DNA from: Macrostomum lignano
Lineage: Eukaryota
Direction of reading: 5' to 3'
Assembly (NCBI GenBank): GCA_002269645.1
Contig: NIVC01004009.1
Location: forward strand, 1 to 64,000
Length of the DNA stretch: 64,000 bases
Below the pieces are notes generated by a model. The model was given only the letters and a program-made list of their open reading frames with translations. It was not told the DNA's origin and made no database searches. Positions 21,060 through 59,361 of this stretch are shown here, piece by piece. A program made the translations under genes and the position numbers. Position 1 is the first letter of the stretch. Every line of letters starts with the position of its first letter.

Positions 21060-24000
21060 TCAGTCAGAAAGATGCAAAGCCAAAAACTTCTTAGTGGGTC
21101 TCGACTGGGCTGAATTCAAATCTCCAACTGGTACTCCGGTCCTACCAGTGGCTGCTCGAAGCGCCTCAGTCTCGGCCTCGAATATCAGCCGGGTCTCCTC
21201 AACGAACTCCGCAGCCATGTGCGCGACGCTTCCAGCACAATTTGGGTCGCAGTTCCAGGCCTCCAATAATTCGGGAATCAAAGTCTTCATGGGCTTCTGT
21301 CCGCTCGAGTGCTCCGCTTTATTTCTCAACTCCTGCCAGATCACAAGCCAAGCAAATGGCTGCTGGAACTGAAACGCTTTTGATTCTCGAGCGCTCAGCA
21401 AATCAACGAGCGCATTTACTCTCTGATTCGCTTCATCATTTGCGGATGCCTTCAGCTTGAGCAAATTTGAAAGTTTCTTGTTAATCTCCGTTCTTCGATT
21501 TTCGTGACTTTGTTTCTGTAATCCGCAAATCAACTTTTTTGTCTCATCCTTTTTTACAGTCATATACCTGAAACCGTATGGGAAGTAATCAAGCCTCTTT
21601 TCCATTTCGTAGCCATCCAGTTTTGCAGTTAATCCATCCATTGCACTTTTTGCGAGTTTCAGGGTTTCCATGATGGCATTATAATAATCGTTCTCAGTCT
21701 GTTTCCCGAGCTGCTCTACTCGCTCCAGAGCCAGTCTCGATTTCTGCAGATCCGTCTGGACCAGAGGCGACGTTTCTGTGTAGTTTTCATTGTCCTCCTG
21801 TGACGCGATGCTGATCAGAGCGAGCAGCTCGTACGAGTCCTTGCTGAACAGCCACGGCACGATCTGCACTGGTCTGTCGGGGTGCTCAGGACAGTACTTC
21901 TGCTTGATGGCTTCTAGAGGGAACCGCCGCTGATGATCCCGTCGGTTGTCCAGCAAGAGTCGAGCGGGCTGGCACGCCTCCGGGTTTCCAAGTCGGAGAG
22001 CCTCGACAATCAAGTCTCTCTTTTCAGCCCCATCTCTCGATTCGGCACGTTTGAGCAAAGCGGACGACAGCAGAGAGTTTTTACGAGGATTATCAGACTG
22101 GAGTTTTTGGAAGTTTTCATCTGCAGCTTGGAAGTCTTGAAGGCGAAGGTATAACAGACCAAGATGCTCGTACACCAACTGGTGATCCGAGTTTTCACTT
22201 TGCAGCGCCTTCTGAAAGCGTTCGAAAATAATTTGTGTAGATTGAAGATCCCAGTTCATGATGTGCAGCCTGAACCAAGCCTCCAGTTCGGGTCTTTCTG
22301 TCCGTTCGCATAGAATTTGCAATATTTTTTCTTTTTTCCAAGGAGGAAAGTAAACTCTGACATCAGGACACACTTGAACTGCTTCGACCATCGACTCAAA
22401 GCCGCTGTCAACGAGCTGCCGCCGACACATGTAGGCTCCCTTGGCATACTGAATGGCAGCTTTGTCTCTGTAATTATCCTTGTATTTGGCTATCATCGTA
22501 TCAAACTCGTCCACAATAAACTCGTGCGTGAAGTCATTCAGTCTTTCCTCTCTGTAGTCCTGCAAACACACGTCTACCCAAATGTGTCCAGGCTCAAGGG
22601 CCTCCTGCTGAGCTCGGATGAGCAGCCTCTCATACTCTTCATAGTCAGATTCGTTTTCCATCAGTTTTGCCAATGAAAAAAATAACTGAGAGTTTTTTGT
22701 TACATCTTTTAGGCTGAGTAAGATGCTTCGTGGGGTTTGAGTGTCATTCAATTGCAATTTGAGAATTCGAAACACTTTTTCACATTTAAGAGCGATTCGG
22801 TAGTGGCATTCTAAATCTTCTGCGTTCAGGTTCTTTAATGCCAGAAACGTTTCAGAAGCCAAGCTTTCGCACTTTTCTCTTAGGTCAGCGTTATTCAAAA
22901 GTGCCTCTGAATAGTTAATTAAAAACTGCTGGTAATACAGTCGAATTTCTTTGGGCGCATCGTCCAGGTTCTGCAAGTTAGCGAGCTCCTCGCTTCGCTT
23001 CCACAGGAGCAGCTCTTCTGGACCCGCAGGAGCCCTGTTGTTGCGGTATCTGCGCAAGCGCGCTAAAATGTACGCCAGCAGGTAGACGCACATGAAATTG
23101 TCGGGTCGCAAGCTCAAGCTGGTCCTAACAGCTTCCTCTGCCTGGACGTATTTCTCTATCCCTTGGTTAAACAGTGCCAGTGCCTTGACGTGAAATGCAT
23201 TGGCTCTGACTTCGATTCGCTGTGCATTATCTGGAACGTTCCAAGCCTGACCCAGAGCCTTTACGCGTTCATCGAACTCAGGAGACATTTTCTTTTGTTG
23301 TTGATCAAGATGAAGAGAGATGGCCTCCAGGACAAAGTCGCACCTAACGTGATGTTGATGGGCACTATTGCCAGCTTCTATAGCATCCTTCAGGTGCTTT
23401 CTTGCCTTGCTAAAATCAATCAGTTTGCGGCTTGGAGAAGCAGCAGAATGGTAAGCAGCAAGCAGACCTCCATACGCTGCGGATAGCATCGGCTCCAGCT
23501 TAAGTTTTTCAGACAGTTTGCGAATTACATCCTCTGGAGTTCTTAGTGAGCCTTCGTGAGCATTCCACTTGAAGGGGCTCTCAGCGTCCTTTAGCTGGTG
23601 TGGCTCCGCAGAGATTTCCTGATGTAAAATGGAATTAAATTTGGACAATCGGTAAAATAAAGTTGAATAAAGTACATATAGGTGAATTGATAAATAAAAA
23701 CACGATGCATTTTATACATCGAGTCTCCATGTAATGCATCGAATCGATGCATTTGAGTCTCCTAGTGACAAACCAATGTTACTTGGTACGACGGATAAGG
23801 GAACACAGCATCTGTTTTCTAACTTCCTGTCTGCGCTTAAAAGCGATTGTTTCTGTGTTTCACATAGTGCAATGATGTACGCACTTTGCTGCTTTTGAAT
23901 CATTCTGCAAACCTTTCCCCTGTCAGACAATAGGATTAAATCGATTCGTTCTATAGTTGTAGTTAAAATTCAGCAGATCGAGTTGACTCACAGAGAGAAC

Positions 24001-30126: not shown

Positions 30127-31042
30127 TCAGTTGAAAATCAGGCACTCAAACTTCTTCATCGAGTACGACAAAACAAGTGCGCTAGCAGATCCAGATGCAT
30201 GAAGAAAGTAATAGATTCCCTGTGTGTTAATATTGGGACACACTTGGTAGACTCCGTTCAGCTCCATGAATGCGCACACGCCGTACCACCACCCAGCGGA
30301 CCGGTGTTGTGCGCAGCTGTCTCCACTCCAGTTGTCATTGTCGGAGTCCGGAGTGCTGAACTGCCAGTTGTTTGGAGAGTAGTTCGTATCAGGAAGCTGT
30401 CCGACACTCGACCTGCTCGCGTCCAGAGGTCCCATCGAACACCTGTACTTGTCGCTCGCTGGGCCAACAGAGAACGGAGCATTCTCAGCCCAGTACCAGG
30501 TGCCGTTCCAGTCGCTGAACTCCCAGCGAACTCTCCACACTCCAGTGGCGGTGAGCTGGTGGAGCTGCTCCAGTCCCATCCAGTAGTTGAGACTCTCGCC
30601 CTGACCGAATCCGCTCGTGTAGTCCGCCCAGTTCCGGTTGAAGCTGTGCTGGAAGGTCGTCCAGCACTTCACCGGCTTCCTTATCTGCAATGGGCGATTT
30701 CATGCACGCATATTGAAGCGGTGCTGAAAAGTGCAGAAGCCGCAAAGCAAAGCCCAGATCACTCACCCACAGCTGAGGCAGGCTGGAGTCGCTGGCGTGG
30801 CGGCACTTCCTGCAGGCGTCCATCGCTCCCCGATCGCAGGCCAGCAGCGAGCAGGAGCCCGAGGCCGCGTCGAAGCGGACGGCATCCGCGTTCTCAGCAA
30901 CCGTTGTACAGTGAATGTCGCTGATGGCCAGCTTCACCGCCAGCACCCGGTACTCGGCGAGGTCGCCTCTGTGGATCTCCCAGCCGGAGTCTGCGGCAAC
31001 AGCAGTTGTCATGACAGCGCAGATGATTAGCAGAGAATGCAT
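30127..31042 (-). CDS. Secreted PAN/apple-like + fibrinogen C-terminal (FReD) protein, 2 exons (31042-30767, 30684-30127)
   Basis: Signal peptide MHSLLIICAVMTTAVAA; phase-0 intron GTGAGT..TTGCAG; FReD motifs FNRNWADYTSGFG, YWMGLEQLHQLT, FSTPDSDNDNWSGDSCA, GWWYGVC. Confidence 0.9.
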
Positions 31043-31383
31043 TGTGCCGTGAGACAGCAGTTGTTTGAGATTCCGCAGTTTTGCTCCGTGTGTTGGCATC
31101 CCCGGAGGCTGCGCTTTGATAACTCGAGTTTGGAGGTGACTGAGTTTTGTTTATTTACAACTGCTTGGCAACAATGAGCGCACAAGCGGATGAGGAAAGA
31201 GAATTGAGACGTCAATTTTTACTACTCAGTGTACAGTTAGCGGAACGGCTGGAGGACAAAAGCAGGAGACACAGCAATTGCAGACGATTATATTCGCTAA
31301 TGTAAGCAATTGGCTAATGAAGCGAGAAAAACTAGAAATTGTGATTACGAGTAATGGAGGCTAAAAGCAGAATAAAAAACGCA

Positions 31384-31725: not shown

Positions 31726-32640
<915 letters not shown>

Positions 32641-32726
32641 GAGAGAGAGGAACGCACATCCAATCCCAGGCGCTGACACGGTGAAAGGACTGATAAAAGT
32701 CAATTTACTTCGAAATAGTTAATGTT

Positions 32727-32762
32727 ACCGATATTTCGAGTAAGGTTACTCTTCGTCAGGGC
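32727..32762 (-). ncRNA. Minimal type I hammerhead ribozyme (Penelope-type)
   Basis: GCC-CUGACGA(A)-GAGUAA/CC/UUACUC-GAAA-UAUC-GGU: core, stem II, palindromic stem III (AUAU), AUC cleavage triplet, stem I GCC:GGU. Confidence 0.7.
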
Positions 32763-32913
32763 AGTACTCATATTCGAGTATAGTTTATTTGCGCGAATTG
32801 CTGTCAAAATATTTAAAGGCGATAACGTTGGGGAGGAAAATCGATAAAGAGAGAGGTAGAGAGAGAGAGAGAAGAGAGGTCACGGCGTGTTTACAAAATA
32901 ATTAATTTAGTAT

Positions 32914-32952
32914 GGGCTAACGGTTTCGAGCCTTTGGGCTCTTCGTCAGGCC
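32914..32952 (-). ncRNA. Minimal type I hammerhead ribozyme, second copy (stem III mismatch)
   Basis: GGC-CUGACGA(A)-GAGCC/CAAA/GGCUC-GAAA-CCGUUA-GCC; one substitution from palindromic CCGGUA. Confidence 0.55.
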
Positions 32953-33380
32953 AAAAATCAGTGTTTCATGCAGTGCAAGTTGGTCTTTTAAGTATTAGTT
33001 TTCTCAGTCTAATAAAATCGCTGAGCTGCTGTACATATGAGGGGTGTACATTTAAACTGGGTTCATTCTAGCTCTAACTTGTCCCAGAGGCTTTCAACCG
33101 GTCAGTTTAAGCGACGGTATATTTAGTATATTAAAAAATTGTTTTTTCGAAGTTACGATTAAATAAAATGCGGTATTGAGGGTGGGAGCATAAAAATCGA
33201 CATTTGTGCGTACAGTCAAGCAGTTTGAATAAAATACACGACAAAGTGAATAAATATTGTAGTTCTATAGGTAAAAAGAGCGCATTGGTTAAAACGATTC
33301 AATGGTTTCCTGGCTGGACGCTGGACGATCCGTTGGAAATAGACCCAGATCTCAACCTTCTTCCATTTCCGATTGAAAAC

Positions 33381-34487
33381 ATGGCGCGAAGGAATCCTGC
33401 CGTCCATCGAGACATTAAAGAGACAGTTGGGTCTTACACTATGGACAAAGATTTTGCGACCTTCATTGACCACTTTGATTTGGTATCAAGAGAATATGGA
33501 TTACAAAATCCAGAAAAGGCGCTACTCCTCCCTCCATTGCTACAAGGCACAGCCCGAGAAATTTATGGAAAATTAGATGCAGCTACACAACGAGATTACC
33601 ATGCCATGATCACCCAACTTCGAACACAGTTCGCACGATGCGGAACCAATCGATCGGTGTTGTTACATAAATTACATAACCGGAAAATGACACCCACGGA
33701 ATCATTCCTCACCTTTGTCGATGATATTCGACAAATCATCAAAGCCTTGCATCAACAGCAACCGCAACCAGCAGCAGCAGCTCAACCCCTTGGACCAGCA
33801 GAAGTGGCTGCTAGAGAAAGACAACGGCTTGCAGATCAAAAGCAAAGTCTAATTCTTAATGTCATTAACAATGCTCAACCTGCCTTGCGAGATAGACTCC
33901 TGCGAGAAACAATTGAGACAGAAGAACAGTTACTCCGCTGTGGAATGCAGTGGGAGGCAAGCGCACCTCTTCTGGCTAACCGCACTAGTGACACCGCACA
34001 ATTAGCAGAACAATTAAGCAAGCTTATGCAACAACACCAAGCCGCAGCAATTGCAATGCGCCCGCCACAAAGCAACCCTCGAAACGTTACTTGTCACAAT
34101 TGTGGAAGAGTAGGTCATTACTACAGAGATTGCCGCCAAAACTTGCGTCAGAATCAACCACGAAATTATTCCGGTGGAAACAGACGAGACAACTGGTCCC
34201 GCTATCCAAACCAACAATATCCATCAAACAGAAATCGGATGAATAATCGACCACCACCATGGCGGGATAACTTACAACCTTACAACTCACGCCGACCCGC
34301 TCCACCAAGGCAGCCAACGCAGGTGCATAGACAGTACACACAGGCCATTGAACCACAGGCCAGTGAACAACAGGCTATCGAACCAAAATTTTCGGTAGAA
34401 GAATTAACACCAGATTTCAGTATCAACGTACGTGATACTCTCTTTGAAGATACCGACTACATGTTACCATCTCCAACGGTGCAATAA
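33381..34487 (+). mobile_element. Ty3/Gypsy gag
   Basis: Retrotransposon-gag-like DFATFIDHFDLVSREY..LLQGTAREIY and CCHC knuckle CHNCGRVGHYYRDC; no 5' LTR recognised upstream. Confidence 0.85.
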
Positions 34488-36480
34488 TCCGAACCGGAAT
34501 ACGAGAATCTTGCTACAATTCTTAATGCTGAAAAACGGAAACGGACAAACAAAGGTGTGAACACTCAACCGTTCCACTTCTCACGTAACCGATTCACTCA
34601 AACAGAAGATAACACCTACGTTACGATGAATGTCGGAGAACTGCATCAACAGACTTCTTCTACGCCGACTCGACCAGAATTCATGGGTACCTTTCGAAGA
34701 CACCCTACAGCGTGTCACCCACCAGCGTATCAGGAACCTTTAACACCTGTACCCCACTCAAGAAAATGGTTCTTCCGTCCACAAGACATCACTCCATCTG
34801 AAGAACCAGAAAACGACTACGAGGAACTGGACGAAACCACGATCACAAGTCACTCCAACAAGAAAGGAGAACAAGAAGAAAGTATGCCGATGCCGAAGAA
34901 GAGCAAGAAGAGACACCCTCTAATGAAATGGCTATTTGCGATGATCCTTTTCGTCCTGCTACCACTGGTAACTTCAACTTCAGTACCAATGATTTGTCCT
35001 ACAGACGCTACCATCCAGCCGGTCATCTACAAAATTCCTACGGAAATCAAATGCAGTTATTTTAAGACGAATCAAACAAAGCCGCTACCGCTTACAATCG
35101 ACATCTACAAAGCGAATACAAAGAAGCATCGACAGATGGGAATTGTGTGCTTTAGAGACAAAGACGAACTCGAAAAGATTTGGTTGGTACAATGGAACCG
35201 AATCAGATATTGGCAAACATCGATGAAGGTATCACATGAAGAATGCCTCCAGTGGAACCAAACCCTGTTTTCCAAAGACGGTGAATTGAAGCTCCACGAC
35301 ACGTCAGCAAACGGAGCGCAACTATTCCGCACCAACAACGTAGCCGAAGGAAGATATGTGCACTACCACGCAGCACGATGGCCTCTGTATACTGTCTACA
35401 ACAGCTATCTGATTCGAAACGTCTTGTTCTACCACAATCCTTTCGAAAACATGGAATCCTTGCAACTACCGCTTGACCAATGCCACTACAGCTCAGGATA
35501 TTGTGCTACTCCTAACTACAACAAAGAGAAAGCTCAAAACTTACCGCTAGCTCCGAATTATTTCCATGACTATCGATACCAAATCGAGTACAGATCGGAT
35601 TCTCGATACAAGGAACCGAGTCGAACTCGCAAATATTTCATCGCATGGGAAGTCAAACTGAAATTGACTGCAAACTACAGAAATACCATACTGTTCAGGG
35701 AAAACTGCTATCTAACATCTTCCTTGCCGATTCTGGAGATCTAGCTCTTACCTTTCCAAAGCAACCAAGCTATACACAACTGAAATGCAAGGAAAACAAT
35801 GAACAACTAATTCTATCTGACCAAGAAATACCAATTGCACTGAAGGACATGGACAAGAATGTATTTTTGAAGGTGATAAATGGTACCTATCCAAGAGAAG
35901 AAACCTTGGAAAGACAAAAGCGAAACTTGCCCAAACCTTCGTTAGTATCAGCACGACTTCTGGCAGCAAAACTAGCCGCCATGGAACACACAAACTGCAC
36001 AAGCAACTGAACTATCTGCATCGCTCCATGGTCAAACTGACATGTCGAATGCACGAGACCAGTCTAAACTACGCGCGACAGAACTACTACGTCAACCCTA
36101 CGACCACCTTCAGGAAAATCACAGGAATTGAAGATGTCCTCGCCGTTCCGGTTTATGGATACTTGCTAATCTACAAGTGTACTCCGATCCATCACTTTAA
36201 CATCTTGTCATCAAACACGTCAACAACTTGCTACGACAAACCGCGGATTGAAGCCTTCTACAATGGAAAGCGAATTCGAGGATTTTTGGATACGGTCCAC
36301 AACATCATTGTCGGAACTGCCATCCCACGACCATGTACCAATTCGGCCAACTATTTCAACGTGAACGATCTACTACATCAAATTTCGCCAACAGGAGACA
36401 TCAAGAACATCTCGAAATCACAAGCCATTGTTGATGAAATTTACGAAATGTCGGATCTTCAACTGAAGTTTAATAGAACA
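34488..36480 (+). mobile_element. env-like glycoprotein, herpes-gB/chuvirus-type class III fusogen-like; C-terminal TM missing; frameshifted
   Basis: Internal signal peptide WLFAMILFVLLPLVTS; cysteine-rich ectodomain (CHYSSGYC); furin-type RQKR; NPTTTFRKITG..VYGYLLIYKCTPI and CYDKPRI..FL..IPRPC match the gB pattern NP..A...G..AV..C.PV / CY.RP.V...EPC. In frame with gag after a single TAA. Confidence 0.7.
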
Positions 36481-36484
36481 ACGA

Positions 36485-38427
36485 AATCCTCATCCCCACA
36501 GCACTGGTACTAATCAGCCGACAAAACGATTCCGGTACAAATCGTCAATCCTAACCAGCACCCAGTGAGAATCTACGCAGGAACCTGCATCGGACATCTC
36601 AGCACACAAGCGTCAGTGATGCTTATTCAATCAACATCGACAACATTGCCAAGGACACAATTCCTAGAACAAATCGATCTGTCACAAAGTCCAATCACCG
36701 AAAAACAAAAGAACCAAGTTAAAGATATTGTATGGAAGTACAACGATGTTTTCTGCCACCACGACTACGACATTGGACGAGCCAAAGACATCAAACAGAA
36801 GATCACACTGCTGCCGCACCAGGAACCGATTCAGTGCAAACCGTGTCCGATTGCAAAACATCTACAACAACACTTCGACGAGATCATCGAGAAAATGCTC
36901 AAAGCCGGTATCATCAAGAAGACAGTTTCAGCCTATTCCTCTCCATGCTTGCTTGTCGAGAAGAAGGACACAAACGAGAGAAGACTTGTCTGCGATTTTC
37001 GAGTCCTAAACAAGTATATCCCGACAGATCAACAAAGCCCACCCAAGATTTCGGAACTAATGGCGAGACTCAACACAGCGACACTCTTCACAGTCTTTGA
37101 TCTACGACATGGATTTTGGCAAATCGAACTAGAAGAAGAGTCTAAGCAATACACAGCCTTTAAGACGTACAATGGAGAAGTCTTCGCTTACCAAAGAAGT
37201 CCTATGGGAATTTCAAACTCACCTGCTACAATGAGCTGACTAACAGCCTACATGCTTGCTGGATGTACCAATCTACTCCACTATGTAGACGATATTCTTG
37301 CCTTCGGAGAAGACTTCGAACAACTACTCCAAACGATGGAACTCGCGTTATTCCTTCTCAGGCGACAAGGTCTCAAACTACAACCCACCAAGTGCAAGTT
37401 TTGCCGAAGCTCGGTACGATACTTGGGACACCACGTATCCGCAAAAGGAATCTCACCAGATCCAAGTAATGTGGAGAAAGTAAAGAAATTACCACGAACA
37501 ACCTCTATAACAAAATTGCAGTCCTTTCTTGGACTAGCACAGTATTTCCGAAAGTTTCTGCCAAACTTTGCCAAAACTGCCAAACCGCTATACGAACTGC
37601 TCAAACAACCAAAGTGGAAGGAAGAAAACTGGAAGGACGAACAACAAGAAAGCTTCGAAAAGATCAAACAGCAACTGACGACCGACGCCTTACTGCAACA
37701 TCCAAACTTCCAAAAACCCTTCATCATTGAAACCGACGCCTCAGGAAGTGGACTAGGCGCAGTTCTACTGCAAGAAACGGAAAGAAAAGTCGAAAAGCCC
37801 ATCGCCTACATCAGTCGAGCTCTACGACCAAACGAAACCAAATGGTCCGCCACAGAAAGAAAATTACTTGGAGTTCTGTTCGCACTACGACAGTTTCACT
37901 ACTACATCTACGGTTCTCCATTACCGACAATTTTCAGAACCGACCATGCACCGCTGACGCACGTTGTCCAGACGAAAGGACAGACTAACAACCGCCTCAT
38001 CCGAATGACACTCAAAATTCAGGATTACAACTTCCAACTAGCCTACAAACCGGGACCACTCAACAAAGCAGCAGACGCACTCTCCAGAGCTTACGAAGTC
38101 AACGCTATCCATCCGATTCCGAAAATGCAAGAACTGATTACAGCACAGCAAGACGACAACTTCTACAAAGCCGCACAAAACACCGACGACACCACGCAAG
38201 CCAAATTAACAGAACAAGAAAGAAAATTCCTTAAAAAACAGCGCGACAACCTAATCTTCAAAGAATCAATCCTTTATTGGATCTGTGACAATATTCCGCG
38301 AATCTATCTGCCATATTTGTTTCGACCCGCTATCTTGCAAGAATTGCACGACATGCCATTAGCCGGACACCTTTCCGCTAAGAAGACAATCGAACGAGTG
38401 ACAAAATTCTACTTTTGGCCGACAATG
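36485..38427 (+). mobile_element. Gypsy pol: RT-RNase H (protease absent)
   Basis: YSSPCLLVEKKD..RLVCDFRVLN, DLRHGFWQI, YVDDIL, FIIETDASGSGLGAVL, FRTDH, NKAADALSR; TGA at 37237. Confidence 0.95.
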
Positions 38428-38725
38428 GTTGGTTATTCGTAAGTGAGACTTTAGGTCGGAATATCTTTATTATGAACAACTGCACTTTCAACTATTGCAA
38501 TCTGTAATGGTCTTCGGCACTATGACAATTGCGCCATATTGATACTGCACAATTAACTTTCCATAGCGCTAATCTTTTGTTGTTGGTGTTTGCTGTTTTG
38601 TTCTAAAAATAGGCGTCCATTATCCCGAGTTTGAAATCATTATCCTGAAGTTTAAGTGAAAAAATAAATAAATGTGCTCATGGTTTAACCATAGACGATT
38701 GCATTATCCTAAAGGCTGATTTTAG
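38428..38725 (+). other. 298-bp insertion in pol with GT..AG ends and duplicated (G)ACAATG target
   Basis: ACAATG at 38422-38427 and 38726-38731; insert begins GTTGGT and ends TTTTAG; pol reads FWPTM / TKDISKYC across it. Confidence 0.75.
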
Positions 38726-39802
38726 ACAATGACCAAAGACATCAGCAAATATTGCCACGAATGCCACTCATGCGCAGCCGCAAAAACGGGACGACGCCAA
38801 AAGCCACAACTACAAACAGTACCGAAAACAACGACATGGGACACAGTCTCCCTCGACATTTCGGGACCACTACCTGCCGCACGACAACACTCGATCAACT
38901 ACACATACATCCTCACCGCTCTCGACGTCTTCTCGAAATTCGCTATAGCAATCCCACTGCCGAACATTACCGCCGAAACAGTAGCTATGGCGTTCTACAA
39001 CGAGATTGTCTGCAAGTATGGAACGCCCAAGACTCTAACCACCGACAACGGAACGCAGTTCACCTCACAACTATTTCAACAGGCTGCAAAACTGCTTAAC
39101 ATACAACAAATATATACGTCTACCTACAACCCCAAAGCAAACTTAGTAGAAAGATTTCACCGCAATCTACACGAAATGCTGACCCACTATGTCTACAAGC
39201 AACCAGAAGATTGGATCATCTACTTGAAAGCGGTAACAATGGCATACAACAGCGCGAGACATCGGTCAACGGATAACACGCCATTCTTCTTGATGTTTGC
39301 TCGAGATTTTCAACCGCCCAGCCTACTCGCAAAACAATTACTACCATCTCAGTACGTGGAAACACCGCCGACACTCCAGACCTTTGCAACGCGACTACAC
39401 CTGGCTTGGCAAATTGCCAAACACACTTTTGACAACCAGACGGCAACATCGACAAAAACCAACAACGCATCTACGCTACAAGTCGGAGATATGGTCTATT
39501 TGCACTATCCAGCACAACAGACGCACAAACACGCACAAAAGTACAAAGGACCATTTCGTGTATCAGCACTGACTTCGGCAACCACAGCCAAACTGGCCAA
39601 TGTCCAAGATCCACATCAGCTGCAGTTCTACGTGCACATTCATCGACTGAAACGCATCAACACAGACTCTACATTTCTGCCAAATTTAAACAATGAAAAT
39701 CACACAAAAAGACCGTCTAAACACATTGCTACTTCTCACGCTGAAACACAAACTACGGACACTCCCATAACTAACCACCCCTATAGCCTTAGACCCCGCT
39801 AG
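38726..39802 (+). mobile_element. Gypsy integrase
   Basis: CHECHSC, VSLDISGP, TTDNGTQF, VERFHRNL, KYKGPF (GPY/F), ends HPYSLRPR. Confidence 0.95.
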
Positions 39803-39907
39803 ATTACTAACACCCGTGTGGAACTCGGGAAAGAATAAGTCCACAGCTTCACTGTGCTTGTCGTAAGAGGCGACTTAACAGAAATCTATAGCAACTGAAA
39901 CACAATA

Positions 39908-41923
39908 ATGGCTAAAAAATTCGAATGCCCTGTCTGTCTAGACAACAACCTTCCGAAGAAACCGCCATGTATATGTGTAAATAATCACCGCACATGCGGC
40001 ACTTGCCTCAGTGACGCTCATTATATCCAGCCCTGGCGAAATTGCCCCATGTGTCGAAGCGCTCTACGCCAATGCATGATTTGTACATCATGGCGCACCT
40101 ACAAGTTCTGTACCAATGAACATTTTCTATGCATGCGTTGCATCAAGAAATTAGCTAGGCGATCAGTGCTTCTGTGCCCTGAATGTGATGCTTTTCCTCT
40201 GGTAAAAATGCGCGACCAACTTTTACGTATACAACCGGTACAAACGGTTCAGTTATCTGCATCCATAGTGCATCAACTCGCTCCAATAGACGTTATTCGC
40301 CGACTAGACAAGTGGCCCCTTCCTAAAAACTCTCGCTCCGCATATGTGCACCTCGTTATGTACGAGGTGTATTCAAAAAGTTCTTTTCGGTGCCCTACAA
40401 AACTGAACACAAAACAACTGGAACTATGAAAACACTGTTAGATTGCTTAACATGATTCTGTCACTCAACATATTCACCGCCAATGTCTTTGCACTTCTGC
40501 CAGCGATTTACCAGGCCTCTGATTTCGGAACTCACACCACTCGCGTCCGTTTGGCGAACAGCTTGATTGCATGCAGCTTCGATGTGCTCGACGCTGTCAA
40601 ATCGAATGCCCCGAAGGTGCTTCTTCACAGATGGAAATAAGAAGAAGTCGCACGGCGACAAATCAGGCGAATAGGGTGGATGTTGGAGCACTTTCCAGCC
40701 CCATTTGCTCAGGAGTTCCACGACGTTGTGCTTGCGATGTGCTGGCGCATTGTCGTGCAGCAGGATCACGCCAGATTCCAGCAGACCAGGGCGCTTCTTT
40801 CGTATTGCTGGGCGCAGCTTCTCCTGCAGAATCCACTTGTAGTAGTCCCCATTGACGGTGGTTCCTTGTGGGACTGCCCAGTTCAGCAGGATTCCTAGGG
40901 AATCAAAAAACATGACGTGCATGATCTTTATCGCGCCCTGCTTCCTGATGGCCTTCTGAGGTCTTGGAGAATGTGCTGGAAGCCATTCGGCAGACTGGGC
41001 CTTTGTCTCAGGATCCCAGCTGTAAACCCACGTCTCGTCTCCAGCAACAATTCTTGATAGAAAATCCTCCCCTTCTCGATGGAACCGACGCAGGTGGCTG
41101 CTTGAAGCCAGAGTTCGCTGCATCTTTTGCTCACCTGTCAGCAGGTGTGGCACCCACTTGCAGAACTTTTTCTGTAGGAGAAGACGCTCAGTCAGAATAG
41201 TGTGGACGCTTCCACTGACACACCAACGTCTTCTGCCAACTCTTCGCAAGTCCGTCGCCGATCATCATCCAAGAGCTCTTGCACTTTCTTCACAACAGTC
41301 TCTTTGGTTGCAGTCATCGGCCTTCCAGAGCGGCCATTGTCCTCAACGCTCTCTCTTCCCTCAGCGAACAGCCGGTACCATTTTCGAACTGTCTGCTCAG
41401 TTGGTGCACAGTTGCCAAGCACTTGCTGAAGCTCCCTAAACATATCCGGTGGCTTTTTTCCTTGCAGAAACTGAAACTTCATCAAGCTTCGAACGTCTTG
41501 CTTTGAAAATGATTCAGCCATGGCCAAGAAATTGAGTGGCAGCTGATAGAAATGTTCGCTGCTCTAACATAGTTGCAAACTGAGACTTAAAACCCTAGGA
41601 ACGTTTAGGCCATAGACATAACTTGGTAAAATCGCTAAAATTCTGCTTACAACGCTTTCTAAAAATAAATGCCAAAGGACCGAAAAGAACTTTTTGAATA
41701 AACCTCGTACACACATCATAATAGACACCGACTAATACTCTTCCCGTTACAACGAAATCAACAACGTTTGTTACAGTATCTATCAATATGCGAACAGCCA
41801 AGTCTTCCATTCCACTGTGCTATAATACCCCTACTTATTAAGAAGCATGCCGATTTAACGATGTTATTAAAGTATAGCGAGCTAATAGCCTGGCAAGGCG
41901 ATACGTACGACGAAGTCGATTAA
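39908..41923 (+). CDS. Double-RING protein A (39908-40362 + 41708-41923), interrupted by mariner
   Basis: CPVC..C.NNH.TC.TC..CPMC followed by a second C..C.NEH..C..C..CPEC; reading frame resumes after the transposon and matches 45046-45276. Confidence 0.8.
40363..41707 (-). mobile_element. Mariner (DD34D) transposon, full length, one frameshift
   Basis: About 29-bp TIRs CGAGGT(G/T)TATTCAAAAAGTTCTTTTCGGT; TA duplication; DETW, HDNAPAH, YSPDLSPCDF; empty site present in the paralogous copy near 45060. Confidence 0.97.
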
Positions 41924-41956
41924 TAAAGTATACCAGTACCTCCCCTTATTCCCCAG

Positions 41957-42559
41957 ATGGAATCATGTCCCGTGTGCTACGAGGAAGAAATCACACCATA
42001 CGTCTACTGCCAGAACGGACACAAGCTGTGTTTCCTCTGCTGCACTACAGAACTGATGGACAAGTGCCCCCTGTGCCGAGCACCACCTACCAACTGCCAA
42101 GTGTGCAACGAAGTCCCACAAAGGCAACTCTGTGGAAACAAGCACTGGGTATGCCACGACTGCGTAATGTCAATACAGTGACGCAACATGACAAGGTGTG
42201 TCACCTGCGCTCAACCAATCTTAATCGACACCCCGGGCAACAATGACCACATAATCACGCTAACGACGAATACCTTAAACAACTTAAGGACAACTGATCT
42301 TGCCCAGATCATCAGAGAGTGGCCTATACCCTACAACCGGCAGCCACAGCTAACCTTCTTGTTCCAACGGGCCCGACATTACGCCATGACGACAAACGCC
42401 CTTCCTGCGGAGGAAATCTACCTCAACCTACTTCACGAGACCAACACTCAGGAGTACACAGCCGTTCAACACCTCATCTGGCCCATAGCATTACTAACGG
42501 CAAGTATCAACAATTACTTCATCACAACGCTCAACGACCACTTTGCTTCTTGCTACTAA
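41957..42559 (+). CDS. Double-RING protein B (internal TGA at 42179)
   Basis: CPVC..CQNGH.LC.LC..CPLC / CQVC..C.NKH..C..C..C..C followed by the shared REWP...EEIY..L...QHL.WP tail. Confidence 0.8.
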
Positions 42560-42686
42560 ACATTCACATAGCTCAATTGACTCTACCTTCCACCAATTAT
42601 GGCCACATAGAAAACAGCATTGTTTCTACGCACCAATCACAAACAATAACCATCGAAACACCCGAGTCCACTACAATTAGTCTACG

Positions 42687-42740
<54 letters not shown>

Positions 42741-42810
42741 ACTACTCGCCTACATACATAGCACACGCCTTACGAAACTACCCTACCACGCTACCATATC
42801 TTGCCTTACA

Positions 42811-43419
42811 ATGCCTGAAGTAGAATGCCCCGTCTGCCTGGAGGAGGCCACCTACCAGCAGGTGATGTGCCAATACGGGCACAAAACCTGCTTCAGGTGC
42901 GTCGACTCCGGCATGATAGCCATTTGCCCACTATGTCGCGACCCCCTAATAGCGTGTAGCCTTTGCGGGGACAATCCCCAGGTGAAGCTGTGCCAGTCTC
43001 GTCACTGGTGCTGCTTCACCTGCCTGCAAAGGCTGGGTACACGTGGTATCACCTATTGCCCTAATTGCCTTGACACTCTCCTTCCCCCGACAGTAGAATT
43101 AAACCAAAATACCGAAATCTGGCCAGAGGTGGGCCTGCATAACCTGGAACAATTCACCGAACGAGAAATCGCCGACAATATCCGAGAGTGGCCGCTGCCG
43201 GTCGAGTTGCACGACGCACGCCAGCGACTGCTAGCTTTCGGCCGGCAACAAGCGGTTACGGAACCGCCTAGATCGGCGGAGGACATCTACAACCAACTAA
43301 CTGATACGATGAACAGCTCCCACTACATCCCACTACAACATCTGTTCTGGCCAGTCGCCAGCTTGGTGACACGAACGCAACGATACATCCGGCGCACCTT
43401 GACGGACATTTTTCAATAA
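42811..43419 (+). CDS. Double-RING protein C (intact)
   Basis: CPVC-x10-C-x3-H-x2-C-x2-C-x8-CPLC, then CSLC..CQSRH..C..C..CPNC, then the shared helical tail. Confidence 0.85.
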   Translation: MPEVECPVCLEEATYQQVMCQYGHKTCFRCVDSGMIAICPLCRDPLIACSLCGDNPQVKLCQSRHWCCFTCLQRLGTRGITYCPNCLDTLLPPTVELNQNTEIWPEVGLHNLEQFTEREIADNIREWPLPVELHDARQRLLAFGRQQAVTEPPRSAEDIYNQLTDTMNSSHYIPLQHLFWPVASLVTRTQRYIRRTLTDIFQ

Positions 43420-43719
43420 ACATTGTGACACTGTCATGTACTCTTGCTTATCTTAACTGATTTACTTACGTAACTGTTTTGCTTGTATGTGTTGCTCCCT
43501 CATGTGTATCTTGTATACTCATATTTTGACTCTCCCCAATAAGTGACAATGACTATGTCTTCACCAACTTACTTAGCATCTGGCATGCAATTGCTTCCTT
43601 GTTCACATACTCAGCTGAAAATTATTATAATAACCATGTAAATAAAACAATATTCACCAGTTCAACCCTTCAGCTTATAAAACAAATTCGAGACGAATTT
43701 TTTGTAAAAAAGGAGATAT

Positions 43720-44690
43720 TGTAGAGATCTCCAAATACGATACAAAGTAAACTACTGTAAGTAGTAACATAAAAAAGCGAAAAACTTGAATGTTATAAAA
43801 ATTGCAAAATTGTCATACTCTATTTTAAGACCGTGAATACAACGTACGACGAAGCATGAGACAAGTTGCTACTATGGTGAAATATGTTGCAACTATGGTG
43901 AAATATGATAAAATATGATGAAATCTGATGAAATATGATGAAATATGAGTCGCGCTACTAAGTATATACCAAAAATTCGTCTATAAATATAAGCGTAAAA
44001 TCCGAGCTGAAACCTCAGACTCGGAGCAGCCTCAAAAGATCTTGTGGTTAGTTAGAGCAACTAATCGACGCTATATCTCTGGGAGAGAAGCGTATCAATT
44101 GTGAAGTGTTGTTCAAGTCTTCGTTATTTTGATTAATTAAGAGCGATTTTATTGCCGGCCGGCCGTTGCTGATCCGTTGAATTTACTGAGACTATTTTAG
44201 GCCTCCCATTTTCCTAAGCGATTGGATAGGATCTGCGGATCGATTCCGATACCCTTAGAGGATTACTGACTGTTGATTTGGATTATCCTAGATTAACAGA
44301 TAGGAGCACACGACTCCCATTCCGTTAGATCTAAAAGAAGACGCCCCTTTTGGAGGACCTCGCGTTAGAATTCGAGTTTATTAGGGCGCTCTGTTGATAC
44401 TGATTTGGCACTCGAGAAACGTACTGAATCCCGCACTCAAGGAGATATTTCGACGTCGACTTCACTGTTCTGCTCTCACTCTCGGCCGACTTTGGACTTC
44501 GAAGACTTCAAGAAGATTCCTCCGGAGAAGAAGATTGGAAGAAGCGAACTCTACAAACGCGCGCATTAAAGAAGAAACAAGGAACAAGCTCGGAGAACCT
44601 GCCCGACACAGAAGAAGAATCCGCCACAGTAAGTGCACACGTTAAATTTGTTCCCAGGCTTAAGTGTCTGGAAGTGGGAGTTTACGGGTG
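43720..44690 (+). mobile_element. 3' LTR of the RING-carrying Gypsy element, about 1 kb (3' end approximate)
   Basis: PPT AAAAAAGGAGATAT directly followed by TGTAGAGATCTCC; TATAAATA near 43983; 3' block CCCAGGCTTA..GTCTGGAAGTGGGAGTT shared with 52012-52040. Confidence 0.7.
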
Positions 44691-44714
44691 ACTGATCACC
44701 TCCCGAATCAACTC

Positions 44715-45276
44715 TTCAACCATATCCAATTTTGGCAAGCCTGCCCCATATGTCGTGGCGCCCTATGACAATCTATGATTTGTACATCATGGTGCACCCA
44801 AAAGTTCTGTAAAAATGAACATTTTCTATGCATGCAGTGTACCAAGAAACTAGCCGCTCGAAAACTGCTTATGTGCTCTGAATGCGATGCCTTTTTCCTT
44901 AGTACAAATGCGCGATCAACTCCTACGCATACAACTGGTACGAACGGTTCAATTGGCTGAAAACATTGCGTACTAACTCGCTCCAATAGACGTTATTTGT
45001 CGACTAGACGATTGTCTATTTCCTAGAAACTCTCGCTCGGCATATGTGCACCTCGTTATGTACGCACATCATAATAGACACCAACTAATACTCTTCCCGT
45101 TACAACGTATTCAGCAACGTCTTTTAAGATACTTATCAACATGCGAATTACCATGCCTCCCATTTCATTGCGCTATATTATCGATACTTATTAAACGAAA
45201 TGCTGATTTAACCATGTTAGTAACGTACAGTGAGTTAACAGCCTGGCAAGGCGATACGTACGACGAAGTAGATTAA
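44715..45276 (+). pseudogene. Double-RING A' (5'-truncated, frameshifted)
   Basis: CPICRGAL..MICTSWCTQKFCKNEHFLC; C-terminus matches A. Confidence 0.8.
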
Positions 45277-45309
45277 TAAAGTATACCAGTACCTTCCCTT
45301 ATCATCCAG

Positions 45310-45912
45310 ATGGAATCATGTCACGTGTGCTACGAGGAAGAAATCACACCATTTGTCTACTGCCAGAACGGACACAGGCTGTGCTTCCTCTGCTGCACTA
45401 CAGAAATGATCGACAAGTGTCCCTTGTGCCGAGCACCACCAACGCACTGCCAAGTGTACAACACCGTCCCACAACTACAACTCTGTGAAAACAAGCACTG
45501 GGTATGCCACGATTGCGTAATGTCAACACAGCGACACAAAATCACAAAGTGTGTCACCTGCGCTCAACCGATCCTGGTCGACACTCCGGACAACAATGAA
45601 CACAAAGTCACACTAACGACAGACAGCTTGAACAACATGACGACAACTGACCTTGCCCAGATCATCCGAGAGTGGCCTATTCCCTACGACCGATAACCAC
45701 AGCTAACCTTTTTGTTCCAACGGGCCCGACATTACGCCATGATGACAAATGCCATTCCTGCGGAGGAGATCTACCTAAGCCTACTGCACGAGACCAACGC
45801 TCAGGAGTACGCAACGGTTCAACACCTAGTCCGGCCCATCGCACTACTAACGGCAAGCATCAATAATTACTTCATCACAACGCTCAATGACCACTTTGCC
45901 TCTTGTTATTAA
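45310..45912 (+). pseudogene. Double-RING B' (internal TAA at 45694)
   Basis: Colinear with B over its full length. Confidence 0.8.
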
Positions 45913-46113
45913 ACAATAACATAGCTCAATTGACTAACACTCAGATAGGGATAAATAGTAAACACCTACCTTCAACCAATTATGGCCACGCAAAAAAACA
46001 TTGTTTCTACGCACCTATCACAAACAATAACCATCGACACTCCCGAGCCAACTGCAATTAGTCTACGATAACATATATAGGCCACGGCTCGCCAACATAC
46101 ACAGCGCAGGTCC

Positions 46114-46420
46114 TGTTGTGACTTTTCATGCAAATAAAGTAGAGAGCGCTAAATAGAAGTTTGTAGTTAACGAGAGAGCGTTCTGGAGCTAGAGAGCCCG
46201 CGCGCGAGCCTAAATAACTTACTAGCCGATTTTATTGATTCGCGTAGATAACAGAACCACAGAAGAGGGGGTGGAACGTACATTTATCGAGAAAGATAAG
46301 CGATGGACGAAGGGGGGTGGCGTACATGGGGGGCCGAGGCGCTGATCAATAAGGTGGATGGTTAGGCAGAGAGGGGAGCAAGTGCAGGCGCACTTATATT
46401 AAAATAACAATTTAGCGACA
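46114..46420. mobile_element. Solo LTR (307 bp) with 5-bp TSD GGTCC
   Basis: GGTCC-TGTTGTGAC...TAGCGACA-GGTCC; absent from the equivalent spacer in the first cassette. Confidence 0.85.
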
Positions 46421-46444
46421 GGTCCTACTAAATCTTCATTTACA

Positions 46445-46737
46445 ATGGCAAACACAGAAGAAGAGTGCCCTGTGTGTTGGAGGCGGCCACCTTCCAGCAA
46501 GTAATGTGCCAATACGGGCACAAAACCTGCTTTAGGTGCGTCGACTCAGGAATGATAGCTACGTGCCCCCTATGCCGCGACCTGTTAATAGCTTGTAGCC
46601 TTTGCGGGGACAATCCCCAGGTGAGGCTGTGCCAGTCCCGTCACTGGTGCTGCTTCACCTGCCTGCAAAGGCTAGGTACACGCGGCATAACTTACTGCCC
46701 CAGCTGCCTCGGCACACTTCTTTCCCCGACGGTCTGA
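46445..46737 (+). pseudogene. Double-RING C' (1-bp deletion, 3'-truncated)
   Basis: Nearly identical RING region to C. Confidence 0.8.
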
Positions 46738-47700
46738 AAAGTACTATAAAAAGCTCATGTTAACCAAGCAAGAAGCTCGCCCCTCCCTGGCCTTGCCTCT
46801 CTTTCGCCTCTCTTCTCCCTTCTCGCTATTCTAACTACTTTTGGTTAAAACAGCTAGGGTCTCAACCCAAACACTAAAACTGATAAATTGACTCACTAAA
46901 ACTAAAACAACAACCAACCCACGTTCCACAATAGACGGAACCTTCGGTTCACCCGAACACTTAGAAACCCATTGGAACTCGAACAAAACGAGCTTCTTAT
47001 TTGGAATTCCATCTTAGACATTATATTTTGTAAGATAACATCTCGAGATTGTGACCATCAAATACAACGGTCTATAAGTTACCATCAAGTGTTTGCATCA
47101 TCAGGAAAAGTCAGTTGAATCCGCCGCCTCAGTTATTTGGCTCTCACATTGATATTTGAAGTAGAACAAGAGCCATAGAAGTGAGAGACCAGAAGAAGAA
47201 CAATAACATATATTTTAAAATATTTCACTCCTCTATGCGACGTAATGTACAGAATATGTGCCACTGCAGCATCTAATATGGCCGATGGCATGTCTAACAC
47301 AAAAGACACGGAACTAACATGGGATACATTCTGATACACATAACTATTCTGAGACTAACAGATACGAGCTACAGTAAGATAGTGCAACGTTGTTCTACTA
47401 TATCGGAATTCTTACACCCATGCCTGACTCAAATATACTCGTACCAATAGATATAACATGGTATCACAGGAAAATACTTTTAATCTATGTCCAGGCCACC
47501 GTAATTCAGAGTGAAACTTGAAACCAATGCATGCCGGCCTAGAAAATATGCGCTACTTTTCACCAATTAAAATTTAATGGTTGCAACAACGAACCAATGA
47601 TAGCCGCCATGCGTACCTACATATATATACTCATTAACAACCATCCATGCCTTGCCAAACACCCTTTGTAAAAATTTAACACAAGACTATACCCTCCGAG

Positions 47701-48324
47701 ATGGAAGATATGTGCCCCGTTTGCCTGGAAGAGAAATCCCAGCAACGACCCCTCTGCCAGAACGGTCATGGAATATGTTTCACCTGTTTCGATATGGGCT
47801 TCAGTCACAACGGTTCATTATGCCGTGATCCGATCATTAGCTGCAGACTTTGTGGGGAAGATCCCAACGTGAAACCATGTAGCTCCAAACACTGGAGCTG
47901 TTTCACATGCCTCCAGAGGCTAGCACGACGGGGCATTAGCTATTGCCCCACCTGCTTCGGGCCGATAGAACCGGCCGCAGCTCATCTAGTACAACAAACG
48001 CCAAGACACAATGAACTCGGTCTCAACAACCTAGAAGCCTTACCAGCACATGAGATTGCTGCCAATGTGCAGGCTTGGCCAATACCAACTAGCCTGCACG
48101 GTGCGCGTCAACATCTTCTGGCCGTTGGACGATACTACACCATGGCCGACAGTTTGCTGATCCCGGAGGAGGAGGTGTACTACCACCTCCTCGAGGCAAC
48201 AGAAGACACGCAGCTAACCACAATTCAACACCTCATGTGGCCCGTGGCGGTGTTGACAGCCAGAGTACAGAGAATATTCCACATATTTTTGACGAACATT
48301 TCGATTAGAAAAAAAACAAGCTAG
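47701..48324 (+). CDS. Double-RING protein D (diverged C-like; first RING partly degenerate)
   Basis: CPVC..CQNGH..C..C..NGSLC / CRLC..CSSKH..C..C..CPTC plus QAWP..EEEVY..QHLMWP. Confidence 0.8.
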   Translation: MEDMCPVCLEEKSQQRPLCQNGHGICFTCFDMGFSHNGSLCRDPIISCRLCGEDPNVKPCSSKHWSCFTCLQRLARRGISYCPTCFGPIEPAAAHLVQQTPRHNELGLNNLEALPAHEIAANVQAWPIPTSLHGARQHLLAVGRYYTMADSLLIPEEEVYYHLLEATEDTQLTTIQHLMWPVAVLTARVQRIFHIFLTNISIRKKTS

Positions 48325-48516
48325 GACTCTCACCTGCATACGAACATATTTAAACTTTTAACGCGACAATCGGTTATTACGGTTTAATATTATGTCAATA
48401 TATTGAATATATCAAATAACGTTTTCCATATCATTAATGAGCCGCTTGCCTACTGTAAATCGCCTTTAAGTCCCAACGTAAATTCGGGAGAAATTTTTCG
48501 TAAAAAAGGGAGATAT

Positions 48517-48640
48517 TGTTGAAGTCTCCAAGCCTCATAACCTACTAGAAGTAGTAAGATAAAACTATGAATACTATTTAAAAATTAACATGCGTCAAAG
48601 TAATAATTTTTAGTAATACATGCAATATCACGTAAACAGA
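48517..48640 (+). mobile_element. PPT and start of a related LTR (truncated)
   Basis: AAAAAAGGGAGATAT followed by TGTTGAAGTCTCC; upstream AAATTCG.GA.AA.TTTT..TAAAAAAG shared with 43685-43719. Confidence 0.7.
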
Positions 48641-49077
48641 GAGTGACCATCAACATAGTCCAAAAAACCGGTTTTCAACCTATATGGTAAATGTCAATTT
48701 AAATGCGATCCAAGCTTCACCCTTTTCTATGTAAAACCCCACCGGTCAAGAGACAAAGTCCATCTTTTGATTCTTATCAGTAGAATTTTCCATCCGTTCC
48801 ACCTCCGAGAGTAATTCAGAAAACTATTGAATAGCATGCTGCGACATAGTGCCCACAAAGACGTAGATAGTTAAGGAGCGAGCAAATCCAGTTTAATCAA
48901 TCCTCGCCAGCGCCGATGAAACTCCCGCGGCAAAGTTTATAGTAGGCCTAGAGAAAAAAACCCCAATAAAATCGATCATCCTACGATCCCCACCCCCAGT
49001 AGGGGTAAGAGCCGTAAATAAAACAGCGGAGGCCCACAACCCTCACCCGCGTACATTTGGCTAGCCACGTATGTACA

Positions 49078-53972: not shown

Positions 53973-54288
53973 GATTACGACAGCTACTATAACTTTTCAG
54001 AAATCATTAAGCAATTGTAGTTTTTTTTCGACAAACGATTGATTCTCTGCGGAGTACTCACAACTCCTAATTTTTGTTTTGGTTGGTGCTCTCGGGAAAG
54101 GAGTTTAGAGTGAACGAGACACGTTTCTCTCCTCTCCTTTCTCGACCCAAGGAAAAAAGAAGTTCCTTGTGGGAATTTTAAGGTCAGCCTTATAGAAGGA
54201 GCATGTTATGTGATTCACGCGCCAGTTAACCTTTACAGAGCATGCAGCAATTTCTTATTTTTGACTTGCTTAATCTTTGCATCTTGCC

Positions 54289-54725
54289 ATGGATGTTGAA
54301 ATGCGAGCAGGCGACAACGTTTACATCGAAAATCTGGAGAACTTCATTAAGGCAGTATTTTCTAGTAAAGATCTTGGCAATTGGAATGTTTGGGCCGATA
54401 AATATAATGCAATTGCTCGGACACCCATCGAGAAGCCAACTATCATCGGTCGAATAGCAAAAACTGCCGACAAGCAATCGCAAATCAACAAGACTCTGGA
54501 CGAGCTGCGCAGGCCTACAAGGCCAACGGCGAGCATGTGCCTGAGAATTCTCTAGAAGAATTTGAGCAGGGAGCATTCACGATCGACGCGGTGCTTGTAC
54601 AGATTGCCAACCTTAATAAACTAGTTGAACGGCGCGGTCAGCAAGGCTTTGCAAACGGCCTACAGCTCGGCAGGATCTTTCGTTTTACAAACGAAGGCTA
54701 TTACAAACTTATCATAGATATTTAA
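54289..54725 (+). CDS. Orphan ORF of about 145 aa with one probable frameshift near 54540
   Basis: Two overlapping ORFs (54277-54555, 54537-54725) join with a single indel. Confidence 0.35.
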
Positions 54726-55119
54726 TGTTAGACCCACCCATTTGCCAGCACTAAAACAGCCACGCAGACCATGCGCGCCCTCTCTGTGTTAATCCATCTA
54801 ACTAGCTAACTATGCAAAAAAGCAAATAAGATGGGTGGGGCGGAAAAATATCACGCCACCACCCCAACACTGCCCCCGAGCACAATGCTGAGTGTTATAA
54901 ATACAATGCAATTGGAAGAGCCGAGGCTCTCCACTGCCGAGTTTAGTAAAGTTTGAGCTCAAACCTAAGAAAGGACTTGTCTCAGTTCTTCGAAGTTTCT
55001 GCCTGTCGTGGCAGAGGGGTAGCAGGCAACACTTAATTTTAACCCCTCTATCACGGAATCATTCACAGGACAGCAGATCACACCCAACAAATAGTGCTTC
55101 CATTCAAGTTTCGCGAAAC

Positions 55120-57584: not shown

Positions 57585-58151
57585 TCGCAGAGCAGTACGA
57601 TGGGCTTATTTTTTTTAACTATAACGACCCGATTTTTACTGTTCTAACAGTGGCTAGCGTAGCAGTTCCAATTATAACAAATATATTTCTCATGTTTTAA
57701 CCGTGGCCAGTTTAATAATCTATAATTTTTATTGACTGCAATGACGCAATACGCTTCAACAGGTGGTAATATTTTGTAATGCTTTCTCTAGCTTTCTCTT
57801 CTTTGATGTACCGCTCGATAAGTTCCTTACGTCTTGATTCCTTGTCCATCGCGACGATTCAACAGCCCGTAGTAAAAGTAAGTTGTCAATGAGCTCGATC
57901 GAATGAAGGACAGACTTGTAGACCTTGGAGTTTTTATTAAAATGCCCCTTGGAGAGGGGCAGCGTGTCGGATCATTCAACCTCACCCAACGCCGAACCTC
58001 GAGACGAAGTCGCCCTGCCTATTTTCGCAGAAGATTTTTGCAAAACTCTGTTCGACCTTTTGAGGTAGATTGCGTTTTTGTTAAATGTCTATGTACTGTA
58101 ATATATACTTTTGCCATTTAAAAAAGTTGCCAAACTATTTTCTGCTGCAGA

Positions 58152-59360: not shown

Positions 59361-59361
59361 T

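Follow-up and report, generated by a model that had tools for sequence, protein, structure and literature searches.

Ty3/gypsy retrotransposons in which the envelope gene (env) stands between gag and pol have been described before. In the accessible part of PMC13524379 (Chary and Hayashi, eLife 2026), Ty3/gypsy elements of GAG-ENV-POL order whose env is of the glycoprotein B (gB) type are described from Nematoda, Bryozoa and Platyhelminthes, and the entry Platyhelminthes_Rhabditophora_Mlig_errantivirus_2 comprises 16 copies of 10.6 kb with long terminal repeats (LTRs) of about 864 nt and a 12-nt primer-binding site. The nematode endogenous retroviruses of Sacco et al. (2022, J Gen Virol 103:1739) are cited in the same text as having env and pol flipped. 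As far as the accessible text of PMC5408684 goes, ORF3 of the LTR elements of bdelloid rotifers encodes an env, a GDSL esterase or a DEDDy exonuclease.

The element compared with these systems here lies in a 64,000-nt stretch of Macrostomum lignano DNA (contig NIVC01004009.1 of assembly GCA_002269645.1), called the window in the following. It is very probably a decayed member of a family that encodes a gB-like Env within one continuous Gag-Env-Pol frame. A first-pass annotation of the window had described a gypsy element with gag, a single TAA, an in-frame env and then pol, and had proposed a gag-env-pro-pol ancestor.

Gene order and reading frame in the family

Querying the genome with the env-region DNA gave 40 scored matches out of 93 candidates and returned 30 env loci. 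gag lies upstream of env in 27 of them and pol or integrase downstream in 28, while pol or integrase upstream of env was found in none of the 30; the loci that miss a neighbour are accounted for by the end of a contig, by a rearrangement, by an interruption and by a fragmentary copy. Collecting the copies was one of the checks proposed in the first-pass annotation, and the conventional order gag-pro-pol-env was not seen. The order gag–env–pol is a property of the family and not of a chimera.

Six close full-length sister elements were compared, along with C272 as a duplicate of the window copy. Among these sisters, five consist of one open reading frame (ORF) of 2,480-2,538 aa with the layout Gag–signal–Env–transmembrane segment–protease–reverse transcriptase (RT)–RNase H–integrase, an order that bears out the proposed ancestor. 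In C391, gag and integrase are broken, but a 1,714-aa frame from env to RNase H is open. In all six the two LTRs are 99-100% identical and run from TG to CA, primer-binding sites are present (6/6), and 4-bp target duplications are readable in five. C391 (L037) has a primer-binding site behind its 5' LTR unlike that of the other five; its sequence seems similar to the 3' end of tRNA-Trp, which would make a primer switch within the family possible.

The same architecture extends well beyond the close sisters. A search of the genome with the Env protein gave 140 matches, 16 of them in open frames longer than 2,400 aa, and ten distant elements, whose Env is only about 25-30% identical, show the same layout, three of them as single ORFs of 2,458-2,866 aa. 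In all 16 elements compared, env is succeeded by a transmembrane segment and then by a D[ST]G motif of a protease; a gag match lies 5' of env in 15 of these (not in C368) and RT or integrase 3' of it in 15 (not in C103), and Pfam places a protease 3' of env in 4/4 long frames. Public proteins with env homology likewise occur in chains bearing gag or protease, for example P0004, P0012 and P0052 with 2,741-2,991 aa (27 of the 66 stored proteins were scanned). Two of the public proteins, P0015 and P0012, have two aspartic-protease matches each, and in P0015 one stands before and one after env.

The pol region assigns the family to Ty3/gypsy. Among 12 PDB matches of the window RT the best are to Ty3 RT (E 3e-38), and the other ten are at 1e-22 or weaker. 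The Ty3/gypsy order protease-RT-RNase H-integrase is present in the sisters, and the window copy has it minus the protease, which was lost by deletion. The sisters also carry the further features of Ty3/gypsy (Metaviridae) elements, namely TG...CA LTRs, a primer-binding site, a purine tract and a short target duplication, while the window keeps the 3' LTR only. The features of BEL/Pao elements with gB-like env are not found, since the RT is Ty3-like and env precedes the protease. A quick RT tree, which holds the copies of this genome and four public proteins, and a FastTree env tree agree in their deep groups.

Env, a proposed polyprotein route and accessory genes

Profile, Foldseek and Atlas neighbours agree on the nature of Env, as the first-pass annotation had proposed for the window. 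A HMMER scan gave 64 homologues and the word-index searches one each, and a profile of 66 env homologues matches Epstein-Barr virus gB (E 7e-16) and further herpes gBs; 33 of the 66 homologues match PF24664 and four match Glycoprotein_B. An AlphaFold2 model, built on the 66-row alignment, of the open env of sister locus L006, to which the 5' env piece of the window is 89% identical over 221 aa, has a predicted local distance difference test score (pLDDT) of 82, in comparison with 34 for a single-sequence fold. Every PDB match listed by Foldseek is a herpes gB, with herpes simplex virus 1 gB at the top (E 2e-21, prob 1.0), and in a viral library the top fold match is nyavirus G (E 6e-25), with herpes, chu-like and rhabdo-like glycoproteins also present. 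The Atlas neighbours are all class III at scores of at most 0.95, and their recognition value is low. In L006 the ectodomain with the predicted gB-like fold is framed by a signal or transmembrane stretch and a transmembrane segment. These models and profiles indicate that Env probably adopts a class III, gB-like fold. In the groups of C247, C1884 and C1695, env contains an insertion of at least 200 aa.

The env ectodomain is under purifying selection: its ratio of nonsynonymous to synonymous substitution rates (dN/dS) is 0.05-0.09 in three pairs versus 0.33-0.40 in the spacer, near the values of integrase and protease. Between C717 and C391, dN/dS is saturated in three of four domains.

The open frame of the sisters contains in succession a basic cluster, an internal signal, a basic cleavage site, one transmembrane segment, a tail of 75-113 aa and the protease, and this succession suggests a possible route for the product. 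Gag and the spacer would stay in the cytosol, while the internal signal would send the ectodomain into the lumen of the endoplasmic reticulum, where signal peptidase would cut. The transmembrane segment would then stop transfer and return the chain to the cytosol, leaving tail, protease and Pol on the side of Gag. The element's own protease could release Gag and Pol, and furin would cleave Env. For budding, the endosomal sorting complexes required for transport (ESCRT) might be recruited by PTAP/PSAP and YPxI/L motifs that the tail of Env contains. In retroviruses, P[ST]AP and YPx motifs bind TSG101 and ALIX. P[ST]AP occurs in the Env tail of seven of nine lineages, with 0.26 expected, and YPx[IL] in six of nine, with 0.41 expected; these counts are to be read as a strong hint.

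Between integrase and 3' LTR, all six close elements carry one to three ORFs with two RING-like motifs each. Their products are probably E3-ligase-like accessory proteins, each translated from a message of its own, with the putative ligase activity read from the motif. For RING pairs dN/dS is 0.21-0.27 in the four of nine pairs that are unsaturated (five of nine are saturated), with 0.27 for ORF 3 against C391. Atlas returns only RING clusters for ORF 3, at scores below 0.9, and is to be taken as a lead only. At least 150 scored matches to ORF 3, out of 215 candidates, are present in the genome. RING ORFs, partly together with env copies, are densely clustered on C2121, C1130, C87, C272 and C1405, a distribution that suggests tandem arrays or insertion hotspots. 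In distant families (C1189, C368, C3269, C1512 and C1884; L081-L098), integrase is followed by ORFs of 198-366 aa that are not of the RING type.

From these parts a tentative picture, less likely than not, of an enveloped element can be drawn that would differ from retroviruses: budding signals would have moved from Gag to the Env tail, capsid and enzymes would be tethered to one membrane, extra Gag would come from short gag-only satellites and an expanding set of the element's own double-RING E3 ligases would act against host silencing. The C717 subfamily includes three gag-only, LTR-bounded copies of about 3.2 kb (L113-L115, on C3022, C1130 and C70), which are 99.5% identical to C717, are products of a deletion that runs from one 7-bp direct repeat to the other and keep a 291-aa frame that includes the zinc knuckle; that they could supply Gag in trans is speculation.

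Several points weigh against the main reading, a Gag-Env-Pol frame with a class III Env and the processing route outlined above. The fold work was done on the open env of L006 and not on the broken env of the window, the TM-scores of that model to gB reach only 0.40-0.44 with a predicted TM-score (pTM) of 0.58 for the monomer, and the match of the window's own 3' env piece to PF24664 (Monjiviricetes_fusion) is weak (E 2e-5) and below the Pfam cut-off. For the tail motif, two of the nine lineages and C583 are without P[ST]AP, and given the kinship of the lineages the figure of 0 in 20,000 shuffles for P[ST]AP is no true probability. Topology, cleavage, budding and fusion are all proposed from sequence, and a one-ORF design would give Gag, Env and Pol near 1:1:1. 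In the ten distant gag-env-pol elements no RING ORFs were detected, and C106 and C3126 retain only 70 aa of ORF 1 and C4296 only 144 aa, so the design does not depend on the RING ORFs.

The alternative that survives best accepts the single ORF as real but has Env and Pol made mainly from spliced or internally initiated messages, with no giant polyprotein threaded through a membrane. Single-ORF retroelements require some way to make more Gag than Pol, and several Met codons lie 5' of the signal sequence. However, between nucleocapsid and signal the five intact ORFs have no Met position in common and no conserved -1 slippery site after gag, and contigs of four out of four runs have no splice joint on the gag-env-protease stretch, one contig reaching from gag to env and a second extending from env across the transmembrane segment to the protease. 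None of the listed sequencing runs is recorded as RNA and the RNA status of these four is a guess, so the absence of joints is weak evidence, and this alternative is regarded as unlikely. Two loose ends that at first resembled splice joints are genomic deletions with short direct repeats.

A less probable alternative, to which little weight is given, is that env is a host-domesticated gene or an inert relic on a retrotransposon that is intracellular only. In its favor, derivatives without env or without the transmembrane segment have multiplied: besides the three gag-only copies there are six near-identical ones (L009-L014) in which the 5' part of env continues in frame into the integrase tail and the RING ORFs are kept. 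The derivatives of the C717 subfamily are about 99% identical to C717, and derivative joints also occur in runs guessed to be RNA. On the other side, signal, basic cleavage site, transmembrane segment and tail motifs are kept across families that are about 25-30% identical, and a relic is unlikely because of the low env dN/dS, because the insertions are young and because env is embedded in the polyprotein frame. An Env that is a selected part of one Gag-Env-Pol frame thus remains the preferred reading.

The window copy and its surroundings

The copy in the window is decayed and dead and could yield at most a Gag-sized product. Its lesions are two stops, three frameshifts, a 1,063-bp deletion, an insertion in pol and a second insertion, the mariner, in RING ORF 1. 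The element does not end with pol at 39802 but continues through three RING ORFs to the 3' LTR (Table 1). No second LTR copy was found upstream of the element within the window, and the copy has lost its 5' LTR and primer-binding site and keeps only a remnant of the leader.

The arrangement given in the first-pass annotation stands in part. gag, the TAA, the ORF that follows it and the overall order are as described, but env is spread over three frames, with shifts near 35654 and 35986, and the RQKR and the gB-like motifs fall outside the ORF directly after the TAA. The hydrophobic, signal-like stretch and the furin-like RQKR (35912-35923) are indeed present, the hydrophobic peak at this position is kept in 6/6 close sisters, and basic residues precede the signal. 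In pol, a further frameshift lies near 36514 and a stop at 37237. The annotation was also right that pol begins in the post-protease linker, that protease and Env transmembrane segment are absent and that one deletion accounts for both: in the alignment to C391, the 1,063 bp took the end of the ectodomain, the membrane-proximal part, the transmembrane segment, the cytoplasmic tail and the aspartic protease.

The deletion and the gag stop are common to the window and to C272 and C4067, which are 98% identical duplicates, and the RT stop is common to C272. Reads across the junctions at 34487 and 36480 had been proposed as a check. Among contigs of the public runs, one from X15 passes through the deletion junction with no gap, and the junction of gag and env is spanned by contigs of both X15 and X16. 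The indels near 35654, 35986 and 36514 are present neither in C272 and C4067 nor in contigs of public runs and may be private mutations or assembly errors.

The annotation had considered gag-env readthrough, and the TAA could be thought of as a programmed stop that sets the ratio of Gag to Env-Pol in the manner of gammaretroviruses. It is a lone in-frame stop between gag and the env-like ORF, it is present in C272, an ORF break stands at the same place in C4067, and stops occur elsewhere in the gag-env spacer of a few other copies. However, the five full-length sisters with near-identical LTRs are open across this junction, the aligned codon of C391 is a sense codon, C717 and C583 have a gap there and open frames, and the three copies that bear the TAA share the RT stop or the deletion at 98% identity and therefore form one lesion lineage. 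A programmed stop is thus very improbable.

Equally improbable is that the locus joins two unrelated elements, as a chimera or by nested insertion, or that assembly produced it artificially. Although the env 3' of about 35700 is 83-87% identical to C391 while the 5' part is 91-97% identical, and the small indels may be assembly errors, dozens of loci share this order, the junctions are spanned by contigs and nine of nine window segments from gag to LTR are nearest to C272 and next to C391. The window also falls into the same 8-row group of the RT and env trees (support 99 and 98). The 3' half of env is about as distant from C717 and C583 as it is from C391, which points to a patch acquired by recombination inside the family, either in the lineage of the window or in that of C391. 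An unrelated chimera is thus rejected on these alignments, and a probable within-family mosaic in the 3' half of env stands.

Table 1. Parts of the element in the window and of the adjoining block (positions in the window).
Feature	Position	Strand	Basis
5' leader remnant	33318..33380	+	similarity to sister C391 starts at 33318
gag: capsid-like region, CCHC zinc knuckle (~34089-34139), start of low-complexity spacer	33381..34484	+	
TAA, nonsense lesion of the window-copy lineage	34485..34487	+	sense codon in C391
Acidic/proline-rich spacer, then basic cluster, then hydrophobic internal signal (~34920-34982)	34488..34985	+	
env ectodomain, gB-like class III (predicted), three frames, C-terminal end gone	34986..36475	+	
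Junction of the 1,063-bp deletion	36475..36483	+	alignment to C391
Post-protease linker, RT (stop 37237), RNase H, start of integrase zinc finger	36483..38420	+	Pfam RVT_1, RT_RNaseH, Integrase_H2C2
304-bp AT-rich insertion inside integrase, 7-bp direct repeat at ends	38421..38724	.	
Integrase core and C-terminal GPF module	38725..39802	+	Pfam rve E 3e-15, sequence
Double-RING ORF 1, interrupted by mariner	39908..40357	+	6 CxxC; weak Pfam Sina_RING; orthologous ORF in C391
Tc1/mariner passenger, 33-bp inverted ends	40359..41711	-	inverted repeat; Pfam Transposase_1
Double-RING ORF 2, one stop	41963..42544	+	
Double-RING ORF 3, 201 aa, open	42814..43416	+	Pfam Sina_RING E 1.5e-4
3' LTR, TG...CA, preceded by purine tract	43720..44718	+	
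Second, diverged, partly broken RING-ORF block 3' of the LTR	44719..48321	+	~85-87% nt identity to first block

The zinc knuckle of gag is matched by Pfam (zf-CCHC, PF00098, E 1.4e-4), the window gag is 93% identical in nucleotides to that of C391, and the 3' LTR and the C391 LTR share 96% identity across about 1,000 nt. The 304-bp insertion is skipped by contigs of 4/4 runs, and its depth is high and repeat-like; the Tc1/mariner insertion is without counterpart in C391 and C272. The second RING block, which includes a RING ORF at 47701-48321, either derives from the 3' end of another, related element or arose by an old tandem duplication. No Rfam families were found in 32600-49000, and no tRNA genes within the 64-kb window.

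Further features lie elsewhere in the window. A minus-strand cluster at 58563-61429 comprises a Walker-A-type ATPase-like and a phospholipase A2-like (PF08398) sequence, a dUTPase (PF00692) and a DNA-polymerase-B-like fragment. We take this cluster to be a Polinton/adintovirus-like remnant. On the plus strand, 54200-57600 holds fragments of a second degraded gypsy-like integrase and, behind them, a short ORF with a transmembrane segment (56991-57584), and on the minus strand, 30127-31150 holds an ORF with a fibrinogen C-domain (PF00147, E 2e-29), probably a host gene. Nested inverted repeats (9777-10863 with 21151-22237, 1,087 nt at 96%, and 8723-9003 with 22996-23276) surround a 23-bp satellite and possibly belong to a large DNA transposon.

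Comparison with described elements

The view in the first-pass annotation that the order is unusual holds, but this order is already published (PMC13524379), and the locus adds one dead copy to it. The family resembles the 'ancient errantiviruses' of that paper, to the extent that its text was accessible, in pol, the gB-type env, the position of env between gag and pol, the LTRs and the presence of several copies. The intact-ORF inclusion rule applied there would leave out the window copy and take in its sisters. The 12-nt primer-binding site given for Mlig_errantivirus_2 is identical in five of the six full-length sisters, and the size given there fits sister C4296, a comparison made by site and size. 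The host agrees as well, as the nearest named protein, the public Macrostomum lignano polyprotein P0002 (UniRef), carries a flatworm label and matches C4296 at every position of the aligned RT region. The window pol is 72-75% identical in nucleotides to C4296, and the window subfamily is, by these comparisons, probably a sister of the C4296/Mlig_errantivirus_2 group, from which the window copy differs in being dead and in having as its closest full-length relative an element with another primer-binding site, C391.

The accessible main text of PMC13524379 makes no mention of a polyprotein, a fused or single ORF, a late domain, ESCRT or budding, and RING occurs in it only within other words. Likewise, the accessible part of PMC5408684 does not mention RING, zinc finger or ubiquitin, and that of PMC12801592 does not mention env, envelope or RING. 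No paper describing polyprotein processing in errantiviruses was found in the literature, subscription journals not being covered, and none describing RING accessory genes in LTR elements was found in searches that covered neither subscription journals nor some supplements. Neither PTAP/PSAP motifs in the Env tail nor sets of one to three double-RING ORFs before the 3' LTR were found in print by these searches. The family is a test case for how one ORF yields a lumenal fusogen together with a cytosolic Pol, and its conserved tail motifs and RING genes offer hypotheses on budding and counter-silencing in a flatworm that is probably a laboratory species.

Other systems share single features with the family. 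The nematode endogenous retroviruses reportedly carry gag, env, pro and pol in one continuous ORF, with an env that resembles that of nyamiviruses and additional 3' ORFs that are not known to encode RING proteins. They differ in their nematode hosts, and the top viral fold match of the Env described here is nyavirus G. The LTR elements of bdelloid rotifers, as described in the accessible text of PMC5408684, have accessory genes between pol and 3' LTR, as is the case here. Herpes gB and the chuvirus and nyamivirus G proteins share the fold class, a furin-like site, a central helix and conserved cysteines with this Env at 12-15% identity. Finally, while mosquito BEL/Pao elements also have a chuvirus-like env, Env in the present family is not a separate gene and not part of a BEL element but is embedded in a Ty3/gypsy polyprotein.

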